A stretch of DNA of 64,000 nt from an uncultured Candidatus Saccharibacteria bacterium (GTDB taxonomy: Bacteria; Patescibacteriota; Minisyncoccia; Phycocordibacterales; JAKAEA01), in the NCBI GenBank assembly GCA_964577595.1, contig CAZNZK010000001.1, positions 66,271 through 130,270 of the forward strand. Direction: 5' to 3'. Position numbers and translations under genes: made by a program. Positions 9,594 through 21,375 of this stretch are shown here, in pieces (the stretch's first letter is position 1; each line of letters opens with the position of its first letter). Below the pieces are notes generated by a model. That model saw nothing but the letters and a program-made list of their open reading frames with translations, had not been told where the DNA came from and did no database searches.

Positions 9594-10112
9594 ATGACCT
9601 CAAAACAGAATATCGATCGAAGCGCCCAGTTAAGCGGGGCCCGTCATAGTTATGAAAATGGGCTTGTTAAGCACGCGTTTTTCAAAACAAACGATCAGGC
9701 GCTGAGCGATAATTTATCACAAGACACGTTTATGAAAACTTGGCAATATCTGGCCAAGGGAGGGAAAATCATCATCATGAAGGCTTTTTTGTATCACATC
9801 ATGAATAACCTCATCGTGGATGAATATCGGAAACGCGGAACAACTTCACTCGACGTTCTTTTGGAACAGGGTTTTGAACCGAGTACCGATGATGCCAGTG
9901 ATATTTTTAATCTTTTAGATGGAAAAACGGCAATGCTTTTGATTGGGCGTTTGCCGATCACCTATCAAAGAACGATGCATTTGCGGTATACGGAGAACAT
10001 GTCACTTTCAGAAATTTCTTTTGCTACTAAACAAACAAAAAATACCGTTGCCGTGCAAATCCATCGAGGACTGGAAAAAATGAGACTATTATGCGCGCCG
10101 GCTCACGCGTAA
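9594..10112 (+). CDS. RNA polymerase sigma-70 family, ECF subfamily sigma factor
   Basis: Region 2 (FMKTWQYL...FLYHIMNNLIVDEYRKR) and region 4 HTH (MSLSEISFATKQTKNTVAVQIHRGLEKMR). Confidence 0.6.
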   Translation: MTSKQNIDRSAQLSGARHSYENGLVKHAFFKTNDQALSDNLSQDTFMKTWQYLAKGGKIIIMKAFLYHIMNNLIVDEYRKRGTTSLDVLLEQGFEPSTDDASDIFNLLDGKTAMLLIGRLPITYQRTMHLRYTENMSLSEISFATKQTKNTVAVQIHRGLEKMRLLCAPAHA

Positions 10113-10268
10113 AATAAAATGAGAACAACATGCTCTGGATAATTATTGTCGTTTTGGTGGTCCTGTGGCTTCTCGGGTTTAGTTTTTCCATAGGCGGTGG
10201 TCTTATCCACCTCCTGCTCGTTATTGCGCTTGTCTTGGTTATTGTTCGGCTTCTGACGTAGTAGGTCA

Positions 10269-10338
10269 AAAATAGGTTCGAATCCTATTTGGGGTATCAA
10301 AAAATCACGTTGATTTATAAAGAGGTTTTCGGCGGCTC
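10269..10338 (+). repeat. direct repeat copy 1 (~70 nt) containing a tRNA 3'-end-like segment (T-arm ATAGGTTCGAATCCTAT plus acceptor 3' strand TTGGGGTA)
   Basis: Near-identical to 11583..11654. GGTTCGAATCC is the canonical T-arm. No matching tRNA 5' half upstream. Confidence 0.55.
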
Positions 10339-10427
10339 CGAGGGCTGGACGATGTTAGAACCTGGTTGCAGGAGTGTCCGTAGAGTAAATATTTGGATGT
10401 TAGTCAATTTGATATACTTCAGTTAAC

Positions 10428-11582
10428 ATGAAAAACTCTCAAAAAGCTTTCATTGTCCCTTTGTTAATAATTATTGCAGTGTTGGTGATTGGGGCTGGAA
10501 TCTATGTTTATGCGCAAAGTAAAATTCAATCACCAACAGAACAAGCTGTTGGTCAACCATATCCAAATAACAGTCTAGAAGATTGTATGGCCGGAAAGCT
10601 TGATCAGCCGCCCGTATACTGTTTTGAATTCACCTTACCCCCGAGTACCACTTTTCAAGGGGTGATGAATTCCTGTCTGGCATTGCCAGATAATCAGTAC
10701 GTGACTGATTTGGGCCCATATGAAAAAGCTTCCTGGTATCCAAGTAATTTTTCCTATCAAGAATATTGTGTTTCTCACTTAGCATCAGATATTATTGAGC
10801 CACAAAGAAATTATCCTTCTACCGACTTTCAAAAGAAATTTTTCCCAAATTTTGTATTACCCGACTTCAGTATTTCTGTCTACAACACAATTGATTATGC
10901 ATTCCAAGCAAAAGTCTGCACTAATTATGGTGTCGTTACTAATTCACCTTCGAAATCGGACCGATGTCTACTTTTTTCTTTCTTAAATCGAATGACGATC
11001 AAGCCGGGTGTCACTGACACTGACAATCAAGTGTCCATTTTTTGTGGCGCCTTAAGTTCAGAGAGTCTGTCGTCGCAATGTAAAAACGTTAAACCTCTCT
11101 CTATAGATACTGCAATTTCGTCTAACTCAAAAAAAGTGGTCGTTCCACCAGTCATAACTTCTTGGACAACATATGTAAGTTCAACGCTAGGTATTTCTTT
11201 CAATTATCCGGCAAGCTGGACACAGCCTGCGTATGTTGGACCAGATACAGGTCTTAACCAGCTTACTTTTAAAGATGGACTGTTTGTAAATATTGGCTTT
11301 AGAGATTCTTATGCAAACAAGTGGATAACACTGAATGACTACCTTAACCTACAAAACACTACTGGCGCTTCAGGATATTCCTCAAAGACAGGTAGCATAA
11401 CAGTAAATGGTAAAAACTATACTACAGTCACCTCTTTGTCTTATGGCCAAGTTGTTGAAAATTCAGTGATTATTCCTAATCCGAATTCAGCAACGAACTT
11501 CGTTATTTTTGATGACGGTGGAAAGATTGATGCAAAAACTTTTAACTCTATCGTTAGTAGCTTCAAATTTATCGGTCCATAA
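10428..11582 (+). CDS. hypothetical secreted/membrane-anchored protein (Cys-containing extracellular domain)
   Basis: 384-aa ORF. N-terminal TM/signal anchor FIVPLLIIIAVLVIGAGIYVYA. Exactly bracketed by the two direct repeats. Confidence 0.4.
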   Translation: MKNSQKAFIVPLLIIIAVLVIGAGIYVYAQSKIQSPTEQAVGQPYPNNSLEDCMAGKLDQPPVYCFEFTLPPSTTFQGVMNSCLALPDNQYVTDLGPYEKASWYPSNFSYQEYCVSHLASDIIEPQRNYPSTDFQKKFFPNFVLPDFSISVYNTIDYAFQAKVCTNYGVVTNSPSKSDRCLLFSFLNRMTIKPGVTDTDNQVSIFCGALSSESLSSQCKNVKPLSIDTAISSNSKKVVVPPVITSWTTYVSSTLGISFNYPASWTQPAYVGPDTGLNQLTFKDGLFVNIGFRDSYANKWITLNDYLNLQNTTGASGYSSKTGSITVNGKNYTTVTSLSYGQVVENSVIIPNPNSATNFVIFDDGGKIDAKTFNSIVSSFKFIGP

Positions 11583-11654
11583 AAATAGAGGTTCGAATCC
11601 TATTTGGGGTATCAAAAAAACACGTTGATTTATAAAAGAGATTTTCGGCGGCTC
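11583..11654 (+). repeat. direct repeat copy 2 (~70 nt) with tRNA 3'-end-like segment
   Basis: AAATAGAGGTTCGAATCCTATTTGGGGTATCAAAAAAACACGTTGATTTATAAAAGAGATTTTCGGCGGCTC matches copy 1 with 3 small differences. Confidence 0.55.
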
Positions 11655-11821
11655 GACGTTGTGCGCGAGGTAATAACCTTTTGGAAGACCAATAAAGAGC
11701 ACATTTATATCCCGAATTATAGGGATGGATTGTTTAAGATTACACAGCCGACAGAGGTAGAGATGGCGGAGTATCGGTAGGGTTTTAGCAAAAAGGGGTT
11801 AAAAATGATAAAGTTTAACTT

Positions 11822-12334
11822 ATGGAAATAAAATCAACTCTCACAAATCAATCTGGGCAAGTATTGGATGTTGCATATAACGATATCAATAGTGAGCTTG
11901 ACCTCGGTTATAAAAAAATCCAAGGCGTACATGCTTACTGCTTTTGCGAAGGTAAGTTGGTACTCGTATATGCCGATAAGAAAGGATATTGGACCCCACC
12001 AGGTGGTGGAGTTGAGGCTGGTGAAAGTGCTCGTGATGCAGTAAGACGAGAAGTAAAGGAAGAGACAAATATGAATGTTATCAGACAGCGCTTTATTGGT
12101 TGTCAGGATATAACAGAGCCACAAGGTGTTGTATCACAAACTAGATCAGTATGTATTGTTGAACCATTCGGTCCTTTTACTAATGATCCAGATGGAGACA
12201 TTACAAAGATTGAACTTATTGACCCTGCTGACTACAAGAAATATTTTGATTGGGGCGAGATTGGAGACCGCATTATGCAACGTGCACTTGAACTAAAAAA
12301 GCAGATGGATTTAGAAATGAATTACGTTAAGTAA
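11822..12334 (+). CDS. NUDIX hydrolase
   Basis: Nudix box GGGVEAGESARDAVRREVKEETNMN (GX5EX7REUXEEXGU). Lies in an AT-rich stretch. Confidence 0.7.
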   Translation: MEIKSTLTNQSGQVLDVAYNDINSELDLGYKKIQGVHAYCFCEGKLVLVYADKKGYWTPPGGGVEAGESARDAVRREVKEETNMNVIRQRFIGCQDITEPQGVVSQTRSVCIVEPFGPFTNDPDGDITKIELIDPADYKKYFDWGEIGDRIMQRALELKKQMDLEMNYVK

Positions 12335-12354
12335 GTTGAGACTACGCTTTATTG

Positions 12355-13323
12355 CTAAATTTCTTGAACTTTACTCTTAGCAAAATCCCAGAACTTTTGT
12401 GCAAATTCAACCTCTTTCAATACATACATATAGGGCGCCTGAATTAGAGCAGCGACGACTTGTAAGTAGGCTCTAACTTTCGGATCTAGTTTGGTATTTC
12501 GAACCTCTTCAAACTTGCTGAACATTGCGTCTGCATACTCTTTACCAGCCAAGACCTCAAGATCGGTAGCGGGTCTACTTATAGAATACGCATCGTTTTG
12601 AATTCTCCATATTCTCATTGGTGGCATAGAATCAATAAAATTAACCTTGTTATTAGAGAAAAGGATGTTACCACCATGATTATCGATAGATGCGAGATAT
12701 CTTTTGTTATCAAAATTCTTAAAATATGTATACGATGAAACAAAGGACTTTATCTTATCGATTATCGCATCTGCCTCTTGTTTTGGAATAAATTCAGAAC
12801 CCATATATAACCACTCTCTTGTACTCTCTAGATTTTGTAAATCTAAATCAACATAAGACATACTGAAAAGATCTTCCATGTCTGTGTGTTTTATCTCAGT
12901 CAATTTTTCTGTACGCTTAAACATCTCCTCAGTAATAAGTTCAAGGTTTTCTTTTGTGAAAGTCTTGTTTCTAATATGATTAAATAAAGTCTGGGAATCA
13001 TCTATTTTCTTCATGAGAATAAAATAGTCCTCCGATGTATCATGAGTTGCTTCGATAAAAGTATCACCGTCTCTTTTTACATATCCAAGCTTAATATAGA
13101 TATCAGGTGCCATGGTGTTATTCCATGTAAAATCGTTGTGATAGAACTCGTGTCTAAAACGATCATCTGAAAAATCACCAAAAAAAGCTTTGTTGTATTT
13201 ATATACTTTATATACATCATCACCAAAGAAAAAGAGCTTCGAGATAAGAGTTTCAATTACACGCTCTGGCTTGCCAAGTTTATTAAAATTTCCATTTTCA
13301 ATTGTTTCAATTAAGGTCGTCAT
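12355..13323 (-). CDS. protein-kinase-like fold phosphotransferase (APH/choline-kinase-like) family protein
   Basis: Brenner-type catalytic motif IDNHGGNILF (HGDxxxxN-like) and downstream IDSMPP (DFG-like) at appropriate spacing. AT-rich codon usage. Confidence 0.4.
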   Translation of the reverse strand: MTTLIETIENGNFNKLGKPERVIETLISKLFFFGDDVYKVYKYNKAFFGDFSDDRFRHEFYHNDFTWNNTMAPDIYIKLGYVKRDGDTFIEATHDTSEDYFILMKKIDDSQTLFNHIRNKTFTKENLELITEEMFKRTEKLTEIKHTDMEDLFSMSYVDLDLQNLESTREWLYMGSEFIPKQEADAIIDKIKSFVSSYTYFKNFDNKRYLASIDNHGGNILFSNNKVNFIDSMPPMRIWRIQNDAYSISRPATDLEVLAGKEYADAMFSKFEEVRNTKLDPKVRAYLQVVAALIQAPYMYVLKEVEFAQKFWDFAKSKVQEI

Positions 13324-13392
13324 ATTTTTCTATTATAACATAAAAAGATAAGGGCTCCGTCTTGCGACAGAGCCCTTGGTTGAGTGTTGAGA

Positions 13393-14052
13393 TCACGAAC
13401 TGAACTGGCTCGCAAAGAGTTCGGCAGGAAGTTTGCAATCAAACTCCCGACTATACTCCCTGAACGTTGCCCGAACGTGTATGTGACCTTTCTTGTCCGA
13501 AGCGGTGAGCTCCATTTTGATGACTTCGCCGTGAATGAGAGGCTCCTTGAAACCAAACGTTGCCGCTAGGTCCCAAAGAACTTCATAGTGCGAAGTGTGG
13601 ATCATCACGTCCGGTAACTTGTCGGCGACGAATCGCTCGAACAGGCTCCCGAGATACGTGAAGAAACGGTGCTGAATCGCAGAACGTTTCTCGATGGCCA
13701 CGCCTTCTTCGAACCGAGGATCACTTGCATACGCTCGGTCCACATCACGCGCCGAGGGGAAGCTCGACCAGATGGCATTCGCAGCGTCGTTGTCATAGAA
13801 ATCCATGCAACGAATTGCGAGCTCATGTTCGACTTCCTCGTAGGGGTATCCCAATTTCTTGGCGATGATGTCTGCAGTCCCGAGTGCTCTCGGTAACGGC
13901 GAGCTGACGATACGAACGTCCTCGTTCTTTCCGACGATGTCGAGAATTTCAGCGGCTGCTTTGCCGATTTGTTCTTTTCCTTCGTCAGTCAGATCAGAGA
14001 ACTGTCCCGTATAGGCAGTTTTGCCGTGTCTCAAAAAGATCAGTGTTTTCAA
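13393..14052 (-). CDS. histidine phosphatase superfamily (phosphoglycerate-mutase-like) protein
   Basis: N-terminal LIFLRHGKTAY (RHG catalytic motif). ~220 aa. Confidence 0.7.
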   Translation of the reverse strand: MKTLIFLRHGKTAYTGQFSDLTDEGKEQIGKAAAEILDIVGKNEDVRIVSSPLPRALGTADIIAKKLGYPYEEVEHELAIRCMDFYDNDAANAIWSSFPSARDVDRAYASDPRFEEGVAIEKRSAIQHRFFTYLGSLFERFVADKLPDVMIHTSHYEVLWDLAATFGFKEPLIHGEVIKMELTASDKKGHIHVRATFREYSREFDCKLPAELFASQFSS

Positions 14053-14276: not shown

Positions 14277-14590
14277 ATGGTAAAAAGAAAGCTGATCCTT
14301 GAAGATGAATTGAAAGTCACCAACAAGCAGGTCCTCGAATGGGTAGAGCTCACAGAAAAGACCTTTGACTTCGCTTGTTACGCTCACATTTGGTTTGAAA
14401 AAGGAGACGATAAGACCAAGCGAGCGATACTTTCATGTTTAGGCTCGAACCTCACTATAAAAGGCAAAAAACTCTTTGTAAATTACCATTCTTTCATAAA
14501 GACCATGATAAAAAGTCGAGAGGCGGTTATCAAAGAATTAGACTCCGCTCGAACCTCGAAACCATCAAGCCATATAAGACAAAACCCCAC
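14277..14590 (+). CDS. hypothetical small protein (possible gene remnant); 3' part of track ORF 14277..14708 overlaps a tRNA exon and is not coding
   Basis: ORF in AT-rich DNA. Only the first ~100 codons are outside the tRNA-Asn 3' exon. Confidence 0.2.
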
Positions 14591-14615
14591 AAATTGTGAG
14601 GTTTCGTCACTAGGG

Positions 14616-14936
14616 CTCCCCCGGGAGGATTCGAACCTCCGACCAATCGCTTACACGAGTCCTTCTATTACTAAAAGGGGTGGACTATATCATTTCCATG
14701 AACCGTGAGGTTTTTAGGAATGAGGCGCTTCCGCAAGAATCTTAAAAAATTCTTGAGTACTCCCGCAAGGGGATAGTCTCTACACCTTCAATGACTTTCG
14801 TCAAAGCTTGGCTCGGTATTGCCCACACGATCGTTTATCTTGGGGGGTTCACCGAATTCACCTCATTTTCAACCACTATTTTCAAAGTGGTGCTGCCTTG
14901 AGACAGGCGACTGCTCTACCGCTGAGCTACAGGGGA
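14616..14936 (-). tRNA. tRNA-Asn(GUU) interrupted in the anticodon loop by a 249-nt group I intron (exons 14903..14936 and 14616..14653)
   Basis: Minus-strand 5' exon TCCCCTG-TA-GCTCAGCGGTAGAGC-A-GTCGC-CTGT. 3' exon TAA-GCGAT-TGGTC-GGAGGTTCGAATCCTCC-CGGGGGA-G. Acceptor pairs with one G.U. Joined loop is CUGUUAA. U1-A72 and G73 as in bacterial tRNA-Asn. CCA not encoded. Confidence 0.7.
14654..14902 (-). other. group I self-splicing intron (subgroup IC3-like) within tRNA-Asn
   Basis: 5' exon ends in U, which pairs as U.G in P1 (exon CUGU / internal guide GCAG near the intron 5' end). Intron ends in G. Conserved core elements present: CCGAGCCAAGC, GAAGGTGTAGAGACTA (P7 5' strand) and GATATAGTCC (P7 3' strand / P9.0). 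Confidence 0.65.
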
Positions 14937-15093
14937 ATAATTGGTTCGGTGTAGAAGCCTTTGCACGACTTCGCGTTTAGACCAGGGGCTTCCTAGTCTA
15001 TTGATGCCTCACATACGACTACGTCCACCGAACCGGAACTATCATAGCAGAAAAGTTTGGCCGAGAAAAGGGTTGTCTGGTATACTTCGGAAT

Positions 15094-15459
15094 ATGAAAA
15101 TAAATATTAAAACAGTAGGCGTGGAGCTTGCTCCGGAGATTCGCGAATATGTTGAGAAAAAACTTGCTGTTATTGAGCGCTTTGGGCACCTCATGGGGGA
15201 GGATGCGGCCCTACATCTTATTCTGGGAAAAACCACCGAGCATCATAAGGGGGGCGCGGATGCTTTTTCCGCGGAAATTCAGTTGCGAGCTATGGGGCGC
15301 GATATCGTGGCGAAGTCTTTTGGTGCCGATATTCGGGCGGCCATTGACGGGCTTAAGGACGAACTCTCTAAAACGTTGGTTTCCGGTGCCGATAAAAAGC
15401 GCACGCTCTTGCGCCGTGGTGCTTCCGCGGTGAAGAATTTTTTGAAGGGCGGAAAATAA
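15094..15459 (+). CDS. hpf: ribosome hibernation promoting factor (HPF/RaiA family)
   Basis: MKINIKTVGVELAPEIREYVEKKLAVIERF... typical HPF N-terminal domain. Track ORF starts further upstream at 14941, but that part overlaps the tRNA promoter region. Confidence 0.65.
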   Translation: MKINIKTVGVELAPEIREYVEKKLAVIERFGHLMGEDAALHLILGKTTEHHKGGADAFSAEIQLRAMGRDIVAKSFGADIRAAIDGLKDELSKTLVSGADKKRTLLRRGASAVKNFLKGGK

Positions 15460-15485
15460 TTTAAAACCGGGGTCAGGCACCGGTT

Positions 15486-16295
15486 TTAGAGGTATCCTTT
15501 GGCAAAATCGGGCCAATTCATTTCTTGTTTGCCTTCGGGGATGACGCGCTCTATGAGGAAGGTGCGTTTTTCGTCGCTATAGTCTACTTCGGTGATAATG
15601 ATGCGTTGGCGACGGCCTTTGCGTTCAATAAAAAAGTGAGCCTTTGGCCAGTGGGAGAACGCTTGGATTTTTAGAAAGTTTTGATACGGGTCACCGGCTA
15701 AGAATTTTTTTGCCGGGTCAAAAGCAAGTTCCCCGTCATTTTTGGTGATTTTTTTGGTGAACGTGGCGAGGGCGTGATTTTGCGGCTCCGCTGGAATTTT
15801 GCCGGCGAGCCATTCGGGCAGGATTTTTGCCAATATATTTCCGCCAATACCACCAAGTTTTATTTCCATTTTCTGGTAGCTGGGTGGCCATGCGCTCACG
15901 GTCACTTTTTCTTGAGCTATAAGAGGGCCATGATCCACATCTTTATCCATGAGCATGATTGAGACGCCTGTGGTGCTGTCATCGGCAAGGATAGCTGATT
16001 GTAGGGGAGAGGGGCCGCGGTATTTTGGTAACAACGAAGGGTGAACATTAAGCGAGCCGTGCTTCGGGAGATTTAAAATTGCTTCGGGAATGATTTGACC
16101 ATATGAGGCAACAATAAAAACATCCCAGCCACCAGCGGGCGCTTTTTCTTGTAATTCTTTCAGGCTGATTTTTTTAGAAGCGTCAGTAATAATAAGGGTG
16201 GGTATAAAACCAGCGGCTTCCAGCTCATTCATGACAAGGATTGAAAAGGGCGATTCACTGCCGAAAAAAACGTAGGAGATTTTCATTATAGACAT
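15486..16295 (-). CDS. fmt: methionyl-tRNA formyltransferase
   Basis: Formyltransferase N-domain motif SLNVHPSLLPKYRGPSPLQ. Lies downstream of def. Confidence 0.7.
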   Translation of the reverse strand: MSIMKISYVFFGSESPFSILVMNELEAAGFIPTLIITDASKKISLKELQEKAPAGGWDVFIVASYGQIIPEAILNLPKHGSLNVHPSLLPKYRGPSPLQSAILADDSTTGVSIMLMDKDVDHGPLIAQEKVTVSAWPPSYQKMEIKLGGIGGNILAKILPEWLAGKIPAEPQNHALATFTKKITKNDGELAFDPAKKFLAGDPYQNFLKIQAFSHWPKAHFFIERKGRRQRIIITEVDYSDEKRTFLIERVIPEGKQEMNWPDFAKGYL

Positions 16296-16930
16296 TATAG
16301 AATTGTGCTTTCGGCGGGTGGTTCCTCGCGCAGATCTTTGGCTGAATCAACAAAAAGGATACCATTGAGGTGGTCGGTTTCGTGCTGGAAAATTTGGGCC
16401 AAAAGGCCGCTTGCACCGCGGGTAAAAGCTTGGCCACTTTCGTCCAAGGCTTTAACCGTGGCTTTTTCGGAGCGGCGGACGTTGCCATAGAGCCAGCGCA
16501 CGGAAAGACAGCCTTCAAGCATCGTTTGTTTTTGGCGGGAGAGCTTGGTTAATTCAGGATTGATAAAAACCATGTCGGCGGGAATGGTGCCCGCCGTTGC
16601 CATCTCTTCTAACTCTTTATTTTCCAGGTCGGCGTAATTGGGCAGGAGGATTTTTCCGGCAACCACAAAGATGCGCCATGGCTCGCCGATTTGCGGCGCG
16701 GCTACGGCCACGGCGTCTGCCTGCTCGGCGATGACGCGCTTCATACGCTCAATAATGCGCTTCAGCTTGGCTGAGCCGAAAAAGTCTGCGGGCACGGGTT
16801 CGGCTTTTTGACGCAGAACTGGGTCGCCTTTTTGCACTACAGCTATTGGCGTGGCCTGAACATTTTTTACTGGCGCCTCGGCCTGCGCGGCGACTGTTTT
16901 TTTAGCAGATTTTTTTGAGGTGGCTGGCAT
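16295..16930 (-). CDS. def: peptide deformylase
   Basis: All three PDF motifs: VAVAAPQIG, EGCLSV, QHETDHLNG. Lys-rich N-terminal extension. Confidence 0.8.
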   Translation of the reverse strand: MPATSKKSAKKTVAAQAEAPVKNVQATPIAVVQKGDPVLRQKAEPVPADFFGSAKLKRIIERMKRVIAEQADAVAVAAPQIGEPWRIFVVAGKILLPNYADLENKELEEMATAGTIPADMVFINPELTKLSRQKQTMLEGCLSVRWLYGNVRRSEKATVKALDESGQAFTRGASGLLAQIFQHETDHLNGILFVDSAKDLREEPPAESTIL

Positions 16931-17002
16931 AAAAATACGGCTTCAGAATACTGTAAAAAACGAACTTTGTCCATTGTCTCAGCAGTGCCGAAGCCTGGTC
17001 TT

Positions 17003-18925
17003 TTAGAGCAGGCTTTCCGGGTCAATATTAACGCTGAGCGTTGGCGGCAGGGCGGCCAACTCGGCGTGCAGCTTGCCGCCGGGCCAGGTGCCGCGGGGCA
17101 GGGCCAGTAATAAGTGCATGCGGAATTTGCCGCGGGCGAATTCTACAAAAGCCGGGAACATGATTGGTTTGTAATTCTGGAGGTGGCGGGCCAGAGCGAA
17201 CATTTCTTTTTCCACTTCGGCGCGGTCGCCCTCGGCGGTGATTTTGATGAGGGTGGTGCTCGGCGGGTAGCCCAGACGTTCGCGCTCGGCAAGTTCGTCG
17301 CGGTGGAAGTCGGCGGCGTTACCACTCTGGGCGGCCTTGAATGCCGGCTGAGCGCCGGAACGGCTCTGAATCAAAAATTGTTTTTGGGCGAGTGAGCGCA
17401 AGCGCAAAAGCAGATTGGTGACTTCTTCACCGATGCGGAAATCGGGGATTGAGAAAAGGGCATCGGCACTGGCTACGGCCACGTTTTCCACGGGCTTATC
17501 TAAATAGGCAACGGCCAGTTCGGTGCCCAGCAATACCGAGCCGGGCGAATTATAAAAGTGCTCTACCCGTTCGCGGGCTTCGCGTCGGTTAGCGATAGAG
17601 TCGCTATCAAGCTGAAAAACGTTCAGGTCGGGAAAAAGGCCGGTCAAGGCTTCGGCCACGAGGGTGATGCCAATGCCAAGCGTGGTGAGGTTCCAGGAAT
17701 CACAAATGCTACAGCGCTCGGCGGCACTACGCCGTTCCCCACAGCGATGACACAGAAAAAATTGCTCGGCTTCGTCGCCACCGCCGCTGCGGTGTAAAAC
17801 GATAGGCGCGCGACAGCGTGAACAAAGCACGGTGGCGCCGCAGTCGCCGCACACCGTGGTGGGCGCTAAGCCGCGCCGAGCGCAAAAAAGAAAGAGGCGC
17901 TCATTGTGTTCGCGGTTTTCGCGCACTAACGTTTCCAGCTCGTCACTAATGATGCGGAATTCCGGCCGGTCCAATATTTTATACTTTTTCATGTCTACCA
18001 GGCGGGCGGCGGCACTGGAAAGTAGGCGGAACTTCAAGGGCACCAGCTCATGAGCTTCGTCGCGGTTGACCCGGTCTAGGGTTTCGGCGCGCAGGAGGAT
18101 GTCGCCGAGCACTAGGCGAATGCCGAGTTGTTTAGCCAGTATCTCGGCGGCGCGGCGGATATCTACGAACGGTCGAGCTTGCTGTTTGTAGCCCGTGGCC
18201 GCTTCACGCTCCACAATAATAGTGCCGAGGTCGGCCCGGGGCAGGCACAAAAAAGCGCCGGTAGCGATGATGAGTAGGGGATGCGGCTCGCCGACGGCGC
18301 GGTTCCACACTTCGGCGAGCTGTTTTTTTGTCATCGCGGCATTGGCCACGAGCGTGTTATTTTCAATGCCTTTAGAGAGTGTCTCAAAAGCACGAATACC
18401 ATCCTGAATAGTTGGCAGAACCACAAACACCGAACGCTTCCGGGCGAATTCTTCGCGAATAATACTCTTATAATGAGCGAAGCGGTCGCTGTCGTCGGCT
18501 TGGAGGACGAGGGGCGGCAAGGGTAAGTCGGCTATTTTTTTCACCACCATGCTCGCGGGTTCCTTCAGGGTGGCAGCCTGCTCCAGGATTTTTGCCGGCA
18601 CTAAAGCCGCCACTACATTGCCCGTAGTGCCGACAAAATAGTGCGCCAACTCGGCGCACGTTTGCATGAAAGGATTCAGAAATAGTTGCCCTCCGGCCTT
18701 CTCGCCAATCTTACTGGTTCCGACACTGCGTAAAGCAAAAGCAGCTGTTTTTACTTCGCTTTTAATATTGGCCGCCAGCACACTCTCCAGCACAATAGCC
18801 GCTATCAGCCGCTTGCGTAGGGGCACTTTAATGACCGTGCCTGGCGGGAGCAGGGCGGCGCTAAAATAAGTGAGGGTTTCCGCTTGGAGACCGCGGCGAA
18901 TGGGGATGACGCGGACGATGAACAT
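17003..18925 (-). CDS. priA: primosomal protein N' (PriA)-like, with degenerate Walker A/B motifs
   Basis: Cys-rich zinc region CGDCGATVLCSRCRAPIVLH...CHRCGERRSAAERCSICDS. Helicase-domain colinearity with PriA (VFVVLPTIQDGIR ... PLLIIATGAF ... TGYKQQ). Expected GxGKT is ADDSDRFAHYK and DEEH is EREA. Confidence 0.6.
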   Translation of the reverse strand: MFIVRVIPIRRGLQAETLTYFSAALLPPGTVIKVPLRKRLIAAIVLESVLAANIKSEVKTAAFALRSVGTSKIGEKAGGQLFLNPFMQTCAELAHYFVGTTGNVVAALVPAKILEQAATLKEPASMVVKKIADLPLPPLVLQADDSDRFAHYKSIIREEFARKRSVFVVLPTIQDGIRAFETLSKGIENNTLVANAAMTKKQLAEVWNRAVGEPHPLLIIATGAFLCLPRADLGTIIVEREAATGYKQQARPFVDIRRAAEILAKQLGIRLVLGDILLRAETLDRVNRDEAHELVPLKFRLLSSAAARLVDMKKYKILDRPEFRIISDELETLVRENREHNERLFLFCARRGLAPTTVCGDCGATVLCSRCRAPIVLHRSGGGDEAEQFFLCHRCGERRSAAERCSICDSWNLTTLGIGITLVAEALTGLFPDLNVFQLDSDSIANRREARERVEHFYNSPGSVLLGTELAVAYLDKPVENVAVASADALFSIPDFRIGEEVTNLLLRLRSLAQKQFLIQSRSGAQPAFKAAQSGNAADFHRDELAERERLGYPPSTTLIKITAEGDRAEVEKEMFALARHLQNYKPIMFPAFVEFARGKFRMHLLLALPRGTWPGGKLHAELAALPPTLSVNIDPESLL

Positions 18926-19109
18926 GGCTTAAATATAGGGGTCAGGGCCTAGTTTTGCAAACCAAACAAAAACTCCGCCGGAAGTATTAAAACTGTGGCG
19001 GAGCTTTGCTTAGCCTTGCGGGGATAACCACCCACTAACCATTGACACGTAGAAGTATAGCAGATTCTCTTTTACAGGCAACTATACGAAATAAAAAGTA
19101 TATTGCCTA

Positions 19110-19178
19110 AATTTTCTTGTAGGGGCGGCGGGAGTTGCACCCGCACGGCTAACGTGTCAATGGTTAGTTGAGACTCTC
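19110..19178 (-). ncRNA. tRNA-like structured RNA, family copy A (acceptor AGGGGCG/CGCCCCT, mini D hairpin, 9-nt loop CAUUGACAC, T-arm GCGGG-UGCAACU-CCCGC)
   Basis: 69-nt cloverleaf-like fold on minus strand. Near-identical to 52761..52831 with compensatory stem changes. Preceded by a conserved promoter-like motif and a leader hairpin. A hairpin plus U-tract terminator lies ~150 nt downstream at ~18957..18995. Confidence 0.45.
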
Positions 19179-19330
19179 TCGCGCCCCTATTACCGAGCAA
19201 TCTTACGAAATTGCCGGTACTTGTATTGTAGGCAGGGGTCGTTAAATTAGTCCTGAAGGAATAGTAAAGAAAAATTAAAATTCAACACTGCTCATTAGAA
19301 AAAACAAGATGTCAAATTTTCTGGTGCCGG

Positions 19331-20869
19331 TTAAAAATCGCGAAGGATGGAGATTTTGGCGCCGAGGGAATTGAGGCGAGCAACAATGTCTTCATAACCG
19401 CGGTTGATGGAATAGATATTACGCAAAACGGAAGTGCCACTGGCCGCGAGCATACCTATTAATAGAATGGCAGCGGGGCGCAAGGCGGGCGGACAAATTA
19501 CTTCCGCGGCCTTCAATGGGGTGATGCCGGTAACATACAAACGGTGCGGATCAACCAAAACGGCTTCAGCGCCGAGCTTTTCAATGTCTTTAGTGTAGAT
19601 AGCCCGCTTTTCATAGGGCCAGTCGTGAATGAGGGTGGTGCCTTTGGCTTGGGTGGCAATGATCGCGAAAAAAGGCAAGTTGTCCATATTTAAGCCGGGG
19701 TAGGGGCGGCATTCAATTTTTTCTTCTAAGGCGGTGAGGCGTGAAGGCAGGGTTTTTAAATCAACGAGTGCCGTGCGTTCGTTGTGCGCGATGTAGCGTT
19801 TCAGGATTTTATAACGGAAGCCCATTTTTTCCAGTTTCAAAAGTTCCAGTTCTAAAAATTCAATTGGCACGCGGCGCAAGGTGATGCTTGAGCGGGTTAC
19901 CACGGCGGCAGTTAAAAAGAACATAGCATCAATAGGGTCTTCAGCTAAGCGGTAGGTTACGGGTGCGTCTATTTTTGTCACGCCGTGCACAACGAGCGTA
20001 GTGGTGCCGATGCCGTCAATTTTCACACCGCATTTTTCCAAAAAGAAACACACTTCCTGCACCATATAATTGGCGGAAGCGTATTTTATGACCGTACGGC
20101 CAGGAATGAGGGCGGCGGCCATAATAGCACTCTCGCTGGCAGTGTCGCTGGATTCATAAAGAATGATTTCTGCTGGCTTAAGCTTGGCGGCCTGAACCTC
20201 GTAGTATTTCTCCTTCGTGGTGATGTTGACGCCAAGTTTTTCCAAAGCATAAAGATGTGGCTTCACGGTGCGTGAACCAAGCCGGCAACCGCCGGGCTGA
20301 GGCAGGCGAAACTTCGGCAGGGCGTGCAAGAGGGGGGCAATAAGCATGACAATGCTTCGGGTTTTTTCCGCCGATTCAGCATTCAGATTCTTCAGATCAA
20401 ATTTTTCCGGTGGTTTAATTTCCAAATCGTTCCCGCTGGCACCTGTCCATTTCACCCCGACGCCGATGGATTGAAAAACTTCAATCATGCGGTTCACTTC
20501 CTCAATTTTCGGCACGCTCTGCAAAACGGTTTTGTTGCGATTTAAAAGAGCGGCGCAGAGCAAACCCATGGCGCCGTTTTTACTCGTTTTAATGGTGATA
20601 TCTCCGGAAAGCGGGCGACCGCCTTCAATCCGAAAATTCAAGGCACCTTTGGAAAGCTGGAGGATGTCGCGGTCCAAGGCGCCACTTAATTTGGCCAGCA
20701 TTTCCGTGGACAAGTTTTGCTCTCCGCGCTCAATGCGAGCAATGGCGCTCTGGCTGGTTTCTAGGCGAAGGGCCAATTCGTCTTGCGTTAAGCCACGGGC
20801 TTGGCGCAAGCGGCTGATAAAGGTGCCTATATCGCTCAAGTGCTTGGCTGTTCGTGGGGCGGCTGGCAT
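19331..20869 (-). CDS. murA: UDP-N-acetylglucosamine 1-carboxyvinyltransferase (MurA) with N-terminal XRE-type HTH domain fusion
   Basis: MurA/EPSP-synthase fold throughout (FRIEGGRPLSGDITIKTSKNGAMGLLCAALL; active-site region QPGGCRLGSRTVKPH). First ~65 aa ISRLRQARGLTQDELALRLETSQSAIARIERGEQNLSTEMLAKLSGAL form a Cro/C1-type HTH. Start inferred at MPAAPRT; the upstream part of the 672-aa track ORF reads through an AT-rich promoter. Confidence 0.65.
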   Translation of the reverse strand: MPAAPRTAKHLSDIGTFISRLRQARGLTQDELALRLETSQSAIARIERGEQNLSTEMLAKLSGALDRDILQLSKGALNFRIEGGRPLSGDITIKTSKNGAMGLLCAALLNRNKTVLQSVPKIEEVNRMIEVFQSIGVGVKWTGASGNDLEIKPPEKFDLKNLNAESAEKTRSIVMLIAPLLHALPKFRLPQPGGCRLGSRTVKPHLYALEKLGVNITTKEKYYEVQAAKLKPAEIILYESSDTASESAIMAAALIPGRTVIKYASANYMVQEVCFFLEKCGVKIDGIGTTTLVVHGVTKIDAPVTYRLAEDPIDAMFFLTAAVVTRSSITLRRVPIEFLELELLKLEKMGFRYKILKRYIAHNERTALVDLKTLPSRLTALEEKIECRPYPGLNMDNLPFFAIIATQAKGTTLIHDWPYEKRAIYTKDIEKLGAEAVLVDPHRLYVTGITPLKAAEVICPPALRPAAILLIGMLAASGTSVLRNIYSINRGYEDIVARLNSLGAKISILRDF

Positions 20870-20996
20870 ATTAAAATAATATATCACATATGGTATATAT
20901 TTAAAAATTGAAAAATGGTGATAACTTTTGTAGGCTTGCGATATTTCTGCAAGGTGATAGCGTAGTGGTTGGATACTTTGTTTTTGGAGGTGCCCT

Positions 20997-21275
20997 ATGG
21001 CTAAAGTACCAACGTCCGATGAGGTTTTTGCGGGTGTAGAGGAAGTTCTCCGTGACACCTTTGTCGCTCCCGGCGCGATCATTAACCGTGATACGCTCCT
21101 CAAGGAAGATCTTAAGGCTGATTCGCTTGATAGCGCGGAGGTCGTCCTCAGCCTGGAGGAGAAGTTCGGGATTGAAATTCCCGACTCTGCGCTGGAGCCG
21201 GTTCCGACAACGGTTGGCGATCTCTGTGCTGTGGTTATGCGTCTCGTCCAGGCCCGGGAGCCAAGCGTTTCGTAA
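20997..21275 (+). CDS. acpP: acyl carrier protein
   Basis: Phosphopantetheine attachment motif LKADSLDSAEVVLSLEEKFGIEIPD. GGAGGTG RBS upstream. Confidence 0.7.
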   Translation: MAKVPTSDEVFAGVEEVLRDTFVAPGAIINRDTLLKEDLKADSLDSAEVVLSLEEKFGIEIPDSALEPVPTTVGDLCAVVMRLVQAREPSVS

Positions 21276-21375
21276 GGAGTTTTTGCAAAATGTCGCAGTA
21301 CTACTCGCCGCCCTATCGTGGGCGGCTTTTCATTTGCCAGAATCTGCATAAAATGGTACTATTCTAGTAGCGTTT

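Follow-up and report, generated by a model that had tools for sequence, protein, structure and literature searches.

The DNA analysed here is a stretch of 64,000 nucleotides (nt) from contig CAZNZK010000001.1 (positions 66,271 to 130,270), called the window below, and the gene in question lies on its minus strand. We propose that this gene is a functional tRNA-Asn(GUU) in which a self-splicing group I intron of 249 nt, probably of subgroup IA (IA1-like) and lacking an endonuclease gene, splits the anticodon loop after U35 and before U36, and we put the probability of this reading at about 0.92. The intron is an ordinary member of the tRNA-Asn 35/36 family, which has already been described in Patescibacteria and experimentally validated (Nakagawa et al. 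2026, mSystems, January 2026; PMC13011429). The gene consists of the following parts.

14936..14903, minus strand: 5' exon of tRNA-Asn(GUU), TCCCCTGTAGCTCAGCGGTAGAGCAGTCGCCTGT, with the 5' strand of the acceptor stem, the D arm, the 5' strand of the anticodon stem and C32 U33 G34 U35.
14902..14654, minus strand: group I intron of 249 nt without an open reading frame (ORF), classed as IA (IA1-like), found by the RF00028 match, by nhmmer and by covariation.
14653..14616, minus strand: 3' exon of tRNA-Asn, TAAGCGATTGGTCGGAGGTTCGAATCCTCCCGGGGGAG, with U36 A37 A38, the 3' strand of the anticodon stem, the variable loop, the T arm, the 3' strand of the acceptor stem and G73.

The first-pass annotation, which was made from the sequence alone, had described a split cloverleaf with a gap of 249 nt, and both its coordinates and its sequences were confirmed. 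Read on the minus strand, the 5' half ends in …GTCGC-CTGT and the 3' half runs TAA-GCGAT-…-CGGGGGA-G, and when the two are joined ARAGORN returns a tRNA-Asn(gtt) of 72 nt with all four stems paired. The body of this tRNA has U1-A72 and the discriminator base G73; CCA is not encoded in the gene and CCCT lies directly 3' of it. The intron begins with CTCAAGGCAG and ends in ...ACTCGTG. The assignment to group I was borne out by the Rfam covariance model Intron_gpI (RF00028), which matches 14912..14661 on the minus strand over its full length (model positions 1-253/253) at 53.3 bits, the gathering score being 50 bits. The E value of this match is 1.1e-10 and no other Rfam family has a hit in the 64 kb of the window, which puts the match far beyond chance. 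The intron contains the guide GCAG at its positions 7-10, and no endonuclease ORF was found within its 249 nt.

Two sets of relatives were used to examine the splice sites and the fold. The first is an alignment (A1) of the window intron with 49 homologs (n=50; 460 columns), to which a P1-P9 model written for the window sequence was applied. The second comes from a subfamily pattern consisting of the P7 5' strand, TYCC-N3-7-GGRA, GTA, N14-44 and GAAGCRCC, which was scanned over species-representative genomes and matched in at least 120 species genomes. Among the matches listed, 111 loci were parsed by ARAGORN, and 89 of them are tRNA-Asn(GUU) genes with the boundaries CTGT/…G/TAA and U1, the others being 10 tRNA-Phe, 6 tRNA-Tyr and a few more. 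The two elements that define the splice sites are given here.

14906..14893, minus strand: P1, formed by exon C32-U35 plus intron C1 (14906-14902) with the guide GGCAG (14897-14893), including the U35-G7 wobble.
14654, minus strand: omega-G, the terminal guanosine of the intron, at the 3' splice site; a G stands right before TAA in 89/89 tRNA-Asn homologs listed.

Within A1 the P1 pairs are C-G in 50/50 sequences, U-A in 50/50, G-C in 47/48 and U-G in 48/48 of those that could be scored, and the next pair, between the first base of the intron and the base that precedes GCAG, covaries (GC 18, AU 12, CG 7, GU 2). Since the invariant U-G wobble is at U35 and not at U33, the 5' splice site follows U35, as had been proposed from the pairing of the exon end with the guide. 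The claim that the intron ends in G likewise held, with this G at 14654. Thus, a tRNA-Asn with its intron at 35/36 is fixed by the position of the wobble together with the position of omega-G.

The first-pass annotation had looked to tRNA finders with intron detection for a check. ARAGORN -i, run on the genomic region, detects the gene but labels it tRNA-Thr(tgt) with an intron at position 33 (33/34). This parse is shifted by 2 nt: the host would be tRNA-Thr(UGU), its intron would follow U33 and precede U34, and in the window sequence the 5' exon would still end in U and the intron in G. However, U33 at the splice site would then pair with the A of GCAG, whereas the wobble that never varies is that of U35. 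Furthermore, the Thr parse would move omega-G 2 nt upstream, to a position where 61/89 listed homologs have a G but the remaining 28/89 have A, C or T as the would-be last base of the intron. Because 47 loci were re-parsed from an ARAGORN Thr call and the G before TAA follows from the re-parse in these, it is the 28/89 failures of the Thr parse that are informative. The ends of the gene also differ from what is seen in the tRNA-Thr(CGU) of the window, which has G1-C72 and A73 and not U1-A72 and G73; the discriminator base was not used across the relatives as its read-out is unreliable when the end points given by ARAGORN vary. Finally, the same miscall by ARAGORN and tFind is documented, and the sequenced spliced products of a homolog show the 35/36 junction (PMC13011429). 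A tRNA-Thr(UGU) host is therefore extremely unlikely, and the preference of the first-pass annotation for tRNA-Asn(GUU) over tRNA-Thr(UGU) was justified. In its default mode ARAGORN missed the split tRNA-Asn in the 64-kb window altogether and reported a single tRNA there, tRNA-Thr(CGT) at 56363-56434.

The helices of the P1-P9 model beyond P1 are listed below in the order of transcription, with percentages of pairing and counts of changing pairs taken from A1.

14890..14873, minus strand: P2 hairpin with a GAAA (GNRA-type) tetraloop; all 6 pairs vary on both sides.
14865..14859, minus strand: P3 5' strand TGAGGTG, which pairs with 14727-14721; 99.1% paired, with 3 compensatory pairs (e.g. CG 32, UA 15).
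14856..14812, minus strand: P4 (14856-14851/14817-14812) around P5 (14846-14844/14824-14822); 98.0% and 88.7% paired, with 4 and 2 compensatory pairs, respectively.
14811..14785, minus strand: P6/P6a hairpin with a GAAA loop; 100% and 95.0% paired, P6a covarying in 5/5 pairs.
14778..14774, minus strand: P7 5' strand GACTA, which pairs with 14687-14683; the guanosine-binding helix, in a pseudoknot with P3; it fits the Rfam consensus for P7.
14773..14761, minus strand: P7.1 hairpin TCCC-CTTGC-GGGA, also present in published Paceibacteria homologs that were found independently.
14757..14731, minus strand: P7.2 hairpin of 9 base pairs with one bulged C; both sides change in 8/9 pairs.
14727..14721, minus strand: P3 3' strand CGCCTCA, which pairs with the P3 5' strand.
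14720..14694, minus strand: P8 (14720-14717/14697-14694) with a variable distal hairpin, P8a; P8 is 96.0% paired with 3 covarying pairs.
14687..14683, minus strand: P7 3' strand TAGTC, within GATATAGTCC, placed by the RF00028 alignment and by A1.
14678..14661, minus strand: P9 hairpin with a GTAA (GNRA-type) tetraloop; 83.0% paired, 6/7 pairs covarying.

The folding from P3 to P9 around the P7 that had been proposed is supported by pairing as well as by covariation. When the model is applied to A1, 90.0% of the cells hold a standard pair; as a control the 3' partners were shifted by 1-3 columns, and the share was then at most 45.4%. The model reaches a covariation score of 0.489, the shifted versions at most 0.135, and none of 500 shuffles reached the observed values for pairing or covariation. 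Changes on both sides are found in 44/67 pairs of the model, with compensatory changes in P2, P3, P4, P5, P6a, P8 and P9, and the segment that forms P7.2 was left free (N14-44) in the search pattern. The window sequence retains all 66 columns that are invariant in A1. The GNRA tetraloops on P2 (GAAA) and P9 (GTAA) suggest that these helices may dock in the tertiary structure.

Between P7 and P3' the window intron has 46 nt that fold as the two hairpins P7.1 and P7.2, and the RF00028 alignment places an insertion of 44 nt at this point. Hairpins of this kind between P7 and P3' are the classical mark of subgroup IA, a criterion that reportedly goes back to Michel and Westhof (1990). We also compared three hidden Markov models (HMMs) with the window intron, one built from 13 published tRNA-Asn introns, one from the same set without Paceibacteria and one from 9 tRNA introns labelled IC3. 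The HMM of the published IA1/tRNA-Asn introns scored 97.9 bits over positions 4-249 with nhmmer, and even without the Paceibacteria, that is with Saccharimonadia and Nitrospirota introns, the match was still of full length, at 47.7 bits. P7.1 and P7.2 are listed among the features by which group I introns are classed (PMC3984707). Of the 28 introns inserted at 35/36, 25 belong to IA, and IC was not assigned to any tRNA intron of Patescibacteria (PMC13011429), and in the part of Table S5 of that paper used here the Nitrospirota tRNA-Asn introns and one Patescibacteria entry are labelled IA1.

The first-pass annotation had typed the intron as IC3, close to the introns of Azoarcus tRNA-Ile and cyanobacterial tRNA-Leu, on account of its core motifs. 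The motifs quoted, CCGAGCCAAGC, GAAGGTGTAGAGACTA and GATATAGTCC, are indeed all present, and the first two are shared with IC3 introns, but they do not serve as a sign of IC3 since the core is common to both subgroups. Azoarcus has an intron in which GNRA tetraloops cap P2 and P9, and P2 and P9 of the window intron are capped in the same manner. The IC3 HMM also scores 40.3 bits on the window intron. This score, however, comes from positions 45-129 only, as against 4-249 for the IA1/Asn HMM, and the 3' domain scores -3.9 bits; moreover, only a few nt separate P7 from P3' in the tRNA introns labelled IC3, whereas the window intron has its 46 nt of P7.1 and P7.2 there. The Azoarcus tRNA-Ile(CAU), the Anabaena/Nostoc tRNA-Leu(UAA) and the IC3 fMet and Ile2 introns thus have the P3-P7 core motifs in common with the window intron, and their exons are presumably held by the anticodon stem as in the window gene, but they lack P7.1/P7.2, differ from it in the 3' domain and are inserted at 33/34, 34/35 or 36/37 and not at 35/36. 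Because P7.1/P7.2 are present, the IC3 HMM is limited to the core and the homologs are labelled IA1 in those Table S5 entries, the window intron is best classed as IA (IA1-like), and an IC3 ribozyme is very unlikely.

The published tRNA-Asn introns, taken from Tables S3-S5 of PMC13011429, provide the closest comparison. In that study group I introns at 35/36 were found in 15 tRNA-Asn(GUU) genes in 95 complete Patescibacteria genomes, and the count for 35/36 was 28 introns in a total of 4,934 complete genomes. HNH endonuclease genes are present in a few of the copies, and the class is stated there to have been listed earlier as 'Asn.4Ug' in the tFind study. The intron of GCA_016700035.1 spliced itself precisely at 35/36 in vitro, and a mutant with omega-G changed to C was blocked at exon ligation. 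By BLASTN the nearest published introns to that of the window are the Paceibacteria tRNA-Asn introns of GCA_026016225.1 and GCA_016699245.1 (E ~1e-12, 69-73% identity over 125-183 nt). The Patescibacteria introns have the same host tRNA, the same U35/U36 site, the same CTGT/...G/TAA boundaries and the same guide GCAG as the window intron, and they share its core, including an insertion of the P7.1/P7.2 type after P7. Those without an endonuclease gene are 205-312 nt long, similar to the 249 nt of the window intron, and ARAGORN and tFind often label them Thr(UGU) 33/34, which is the miscall that ARAGORN makes in the window. The window copy differs in that it comes from a metagenomic contig outside the 95 complete genomes and is at most ~73% identical to any species-representative copy among the matches listed; in addition, the Saccharimonadia members, among them the tested GCA_016700035.1, have one longer hairpin after P7 where the window intron has two. 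The tRNA-Asn(GUU) 35/36 introns of Nitrospirota (IA1 in Table S5) belong to another phylum, and their insertion after P7 differs in form, but they too have the same tRNA, site and guide, and their 3' ends are built alike, with P9 as a hairpin capped by a GNRA loop, then a short tail and G/TAA. The first-pass annotation took tRNA-Asn for an unusual host. This view is out of date, since tRNA-Asn introns at 35/36 and their splicing were reported in 2026 (PMC13011429) and 89 more are among the matches listed here.

Most of the matches listed are from metagenome-assembled genomes (MAGs) of Patescibacteria, namely Paceibacterota/Parcubacteria and Kaiser-, Nomura-, Taylor-, Uhr- and Falkowbacteria. 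The nearest copies among them (L013 and L004) are only ~70-73% identical to the window intron and, therefore, the window's own species is absent among the matches listed. Introns longer than 450 nt with an ORF in the P1 loop were found in 27/89 listed tRNA-Asn relatives (L006, L013, L097 and 24 others). The longest frames in these are of 73-141 amino acids (aa). They begin close to where the intron begins, and most of them close at the guide GCAGC or slightly beyond it, so that translation and P1 formation would compete. When three of the P1-loop ORFs were scanned with the Pfam HNH model (PF01844), one passed the cut-off (28.2 bits) and two were just below it, in agreement with PMC13011429. 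From these relatives with HNH ORFs we infer how the family may have spread.

The subfamily was also seen in tRNA-Asn, tRNA-Tyr or tRNA-His genes of MAGs that bear the labels Elusimicrobia, Omnitrophota, Stahlbacteria, Edwardsbacteria and Simkania (L029, L033, L035, L043, L045, L050, L075, L088, L089, L099, L101, L111 and L122). This range exceeds that of the complete-genome set of PMC13011429, and the MAG labels, especially those marked TPA_asm, and the binning may be unreliable. Apart from cellular genomes, the P7-P7.1-P7.2-P3' signature was found in 37 IMG/VR contigs (L123-L159), with 36 copies outside tRNA genes; the RF00028 gathering score was passed by 11 introns on 8/10 contigs tested, at 54-92 bits. 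Classical phage introns such as those of T4 td and SPO1 are IA. The phage group IA introns have the signature in common with the window intron, but their hosts are protein-coding genes and because of this their guide sequences differ. Two contigs each have three group I introns within ~1.3 kb (L141:708-1935, plus strand, and L128:363-1590, minus strand; Rfam 81-89 bits), and their joined exons give an SU10-type major capsid protein (PF17236, E 2e-40), that is, one gene split three times.

The window intron is apparently intact, and from its structure and from the homolog that was tested it is predicted to splice. On folding of the precursor the exon end C32-U35 would pair with the guide GGCAG as P1, in which the U35-G wobble would mark the 5' splice site, and a free guanosine held in P7 would attack after U35. 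Next, omega-G (14654) would occupy the G-binding site and the 3'-OH of U35 would attack before U36, by which CUGU would be joined to UAA, the loop CUGUUAA restored and the intron released.

Several points weigh against the reading of a functional tRNA-Asn(GUU) with a self-splicing IA1-like intron. P7 is identical in all 50 sequences of A1 and most of P7.1 is invariant as well, so that both are uninformative for covariation; the 5' strand of P7 and most of P7.1 are moreover part of the search pattern, by which their conservation is partly forced. P8a is only 45.9% paired in A1, where the region is variable or misaligned. The label IA1 depends on the similarity to labelled homologs together with the presence of P7.1/P7.2, and the phylum of the host is placed by synteny and best matches. 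By inspection of the intron sequence no clear P10 pairing was found; because of this, it is probably the anticodon stem that holds both exons together and aligns them. Such a role of the anticodon stem has been reported for Anabaena pre-tRNA (Zaug et al. 1993, cited in PMC3984707). Scanning of 14300-15300 revealed no sigma-70-like promoter on the minus strand in the ~360 nt that precede the tRNA, and a consensus terminator scan of the same region called no terminator. Lastly, the copies of tRNA-Asn can be counted only in the 64 kb of the genome that are in view.

The last of these points, the absence of a recognisable promoter and the absence of an endonuclease ORF would also fit a different explanation, in which the intron is a decayed relic that no longer splices and this tRNA-Asn copy is a pseudogene, with an intact copy elsewhere in the genome. 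Against this, the window sequence is intact at all 66 invariant core columns and in all helices, the tRNA exons fold canonically and the locus is syntenic across many species, which indicates that it has been maintained for a long time. We consider a relic very improbable and retain the functional tRNA-Asn(GUU) gene as the most likely explanation.

The synteny concerns the genes upstream of the tRNA, which are hpf (divergent), fmt, def, a 640-aa protein without a Pfam match and a MurA-like protein with an N-terminal helix-turn-helix (HTH) domain (15094-21349). Next to the intron-bearing tRNA-Asn of the listed relatives fmt is found at 19 loci, def at 17 and hpf at 11, and the best matches of the flanking genes are in MAGs labelled Kaiserbacteria or Patescibacteria, with up to 62% aa identity for the MurA-like protein against a Kaiserbacteria MAG. 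The source of the DNA is metagenomic data under JGI 3300028800 and Logan SRR8464963, in which the longest contig is of 272 kb. Judged by gene order and best matches, the host is probably a Paceibacteria-like Patescibacterium; Patescibacteria are the usual hosts of the family, though membership does not strictly depend on it. The intron seems to have been inherited vertically with this neighbourhood (hpf, fmt, def). The fusion of an HTH domain to an EPSP synthase (672 aa, 19331-21349) is unusual in itself.

Just 3' of the tRNA there is one further element that may belong to the transcription unit.

14608..14578, minus strand: hairpin followed by a T-rich tract, ~-20.6 kcal/mol by RNAfold for a 56-nt segment.

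This hairpin is a possible terminator candidate, a role that we only infer because the terminator scan called none. An ORF of 143 aa (14277-14708, plus strand) lies antisense to the 3' exon of the tRNA and to the adjoining 3' portion of the intron. Pfam gives no match for it, it is not called on the identical public contig, and we rejected it as very likely spurious. Automatic annotation could still include this ORF and thereby hide the tRNA. The only other tRNA of the window, tRNA-Thr(CGT) at 56363-56434 on the minus strand, appears by eye to have an atypical D-arm region (GGGCCGG-CA-TGCCGGTACAGAAT…).

Downstream of the tRNA lies an AT-rich stretch (9600-14052) with a GC content of 36-40% against ~48% elsewhere. 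It encodes a sigma factor resembling those of the extracytoplasmic function (ECF) type, proteins of 384 aa and 322 aa without a Pfam match, a NUDIX protein and a histidine phosphatase. Counterparts at the related loci were sought for two genes of this stretch, those of the phosphatase and the 322-aa protein, and neither had one; no integrase domain was found among the ORFs of the stretch that were scanned with Pfam. The first-pass annotation had noted that the intron sits next to an AT-rich island, and integration of an island at the tRNA-Asn was considered here. The 64-kb window was searched for att-like copies of the last 22 nt of the tRNA with at most 3 mismatches, which returned only the gene itself. 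There is thus no evidence of a link, and the idea of integration was dropped.

The arrangement of the gene, the insertion site, the self-splicing and the annotation pitfall were all published in January 2026, and the window adds little new biology to them. The intron might sit in the only tRNA-Asn gene of the genome, and its splicing might depend on the levels of guanosine or Mg2+, but we regard this as very unlikely; regulation through the splicing of a tRNA intron appears in Nakagawa et al. 2026 (PMC13011429) as speculation only. If it were true, translation would be throttled at the RNA level by how much mature tRNA-Asn is supplied, and the divergent neighbour hpf, which codes for a ribosome hibernation factor and is present in the 11 relatives mentioned above, would fit a shared growth-state module. 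The adjacency of hpf may also be plain synteny. The practical value of the finding lies in annotation, as this gene escapes tRNA finders at their default settings and is taken for tRNA-Thr(UGU) by ARAGORN in its intron mode. A genome in which the gene is missed or mislabelled would seem to be without tRNA-Asn, which matters for the completeness estimates of MAGs from candidate phyla. The family itself is much commoner than the 28 introns in 4,934 complete genomes would suggest, as at least 89 tRNA-Asn copies came from one subfamily pattern.

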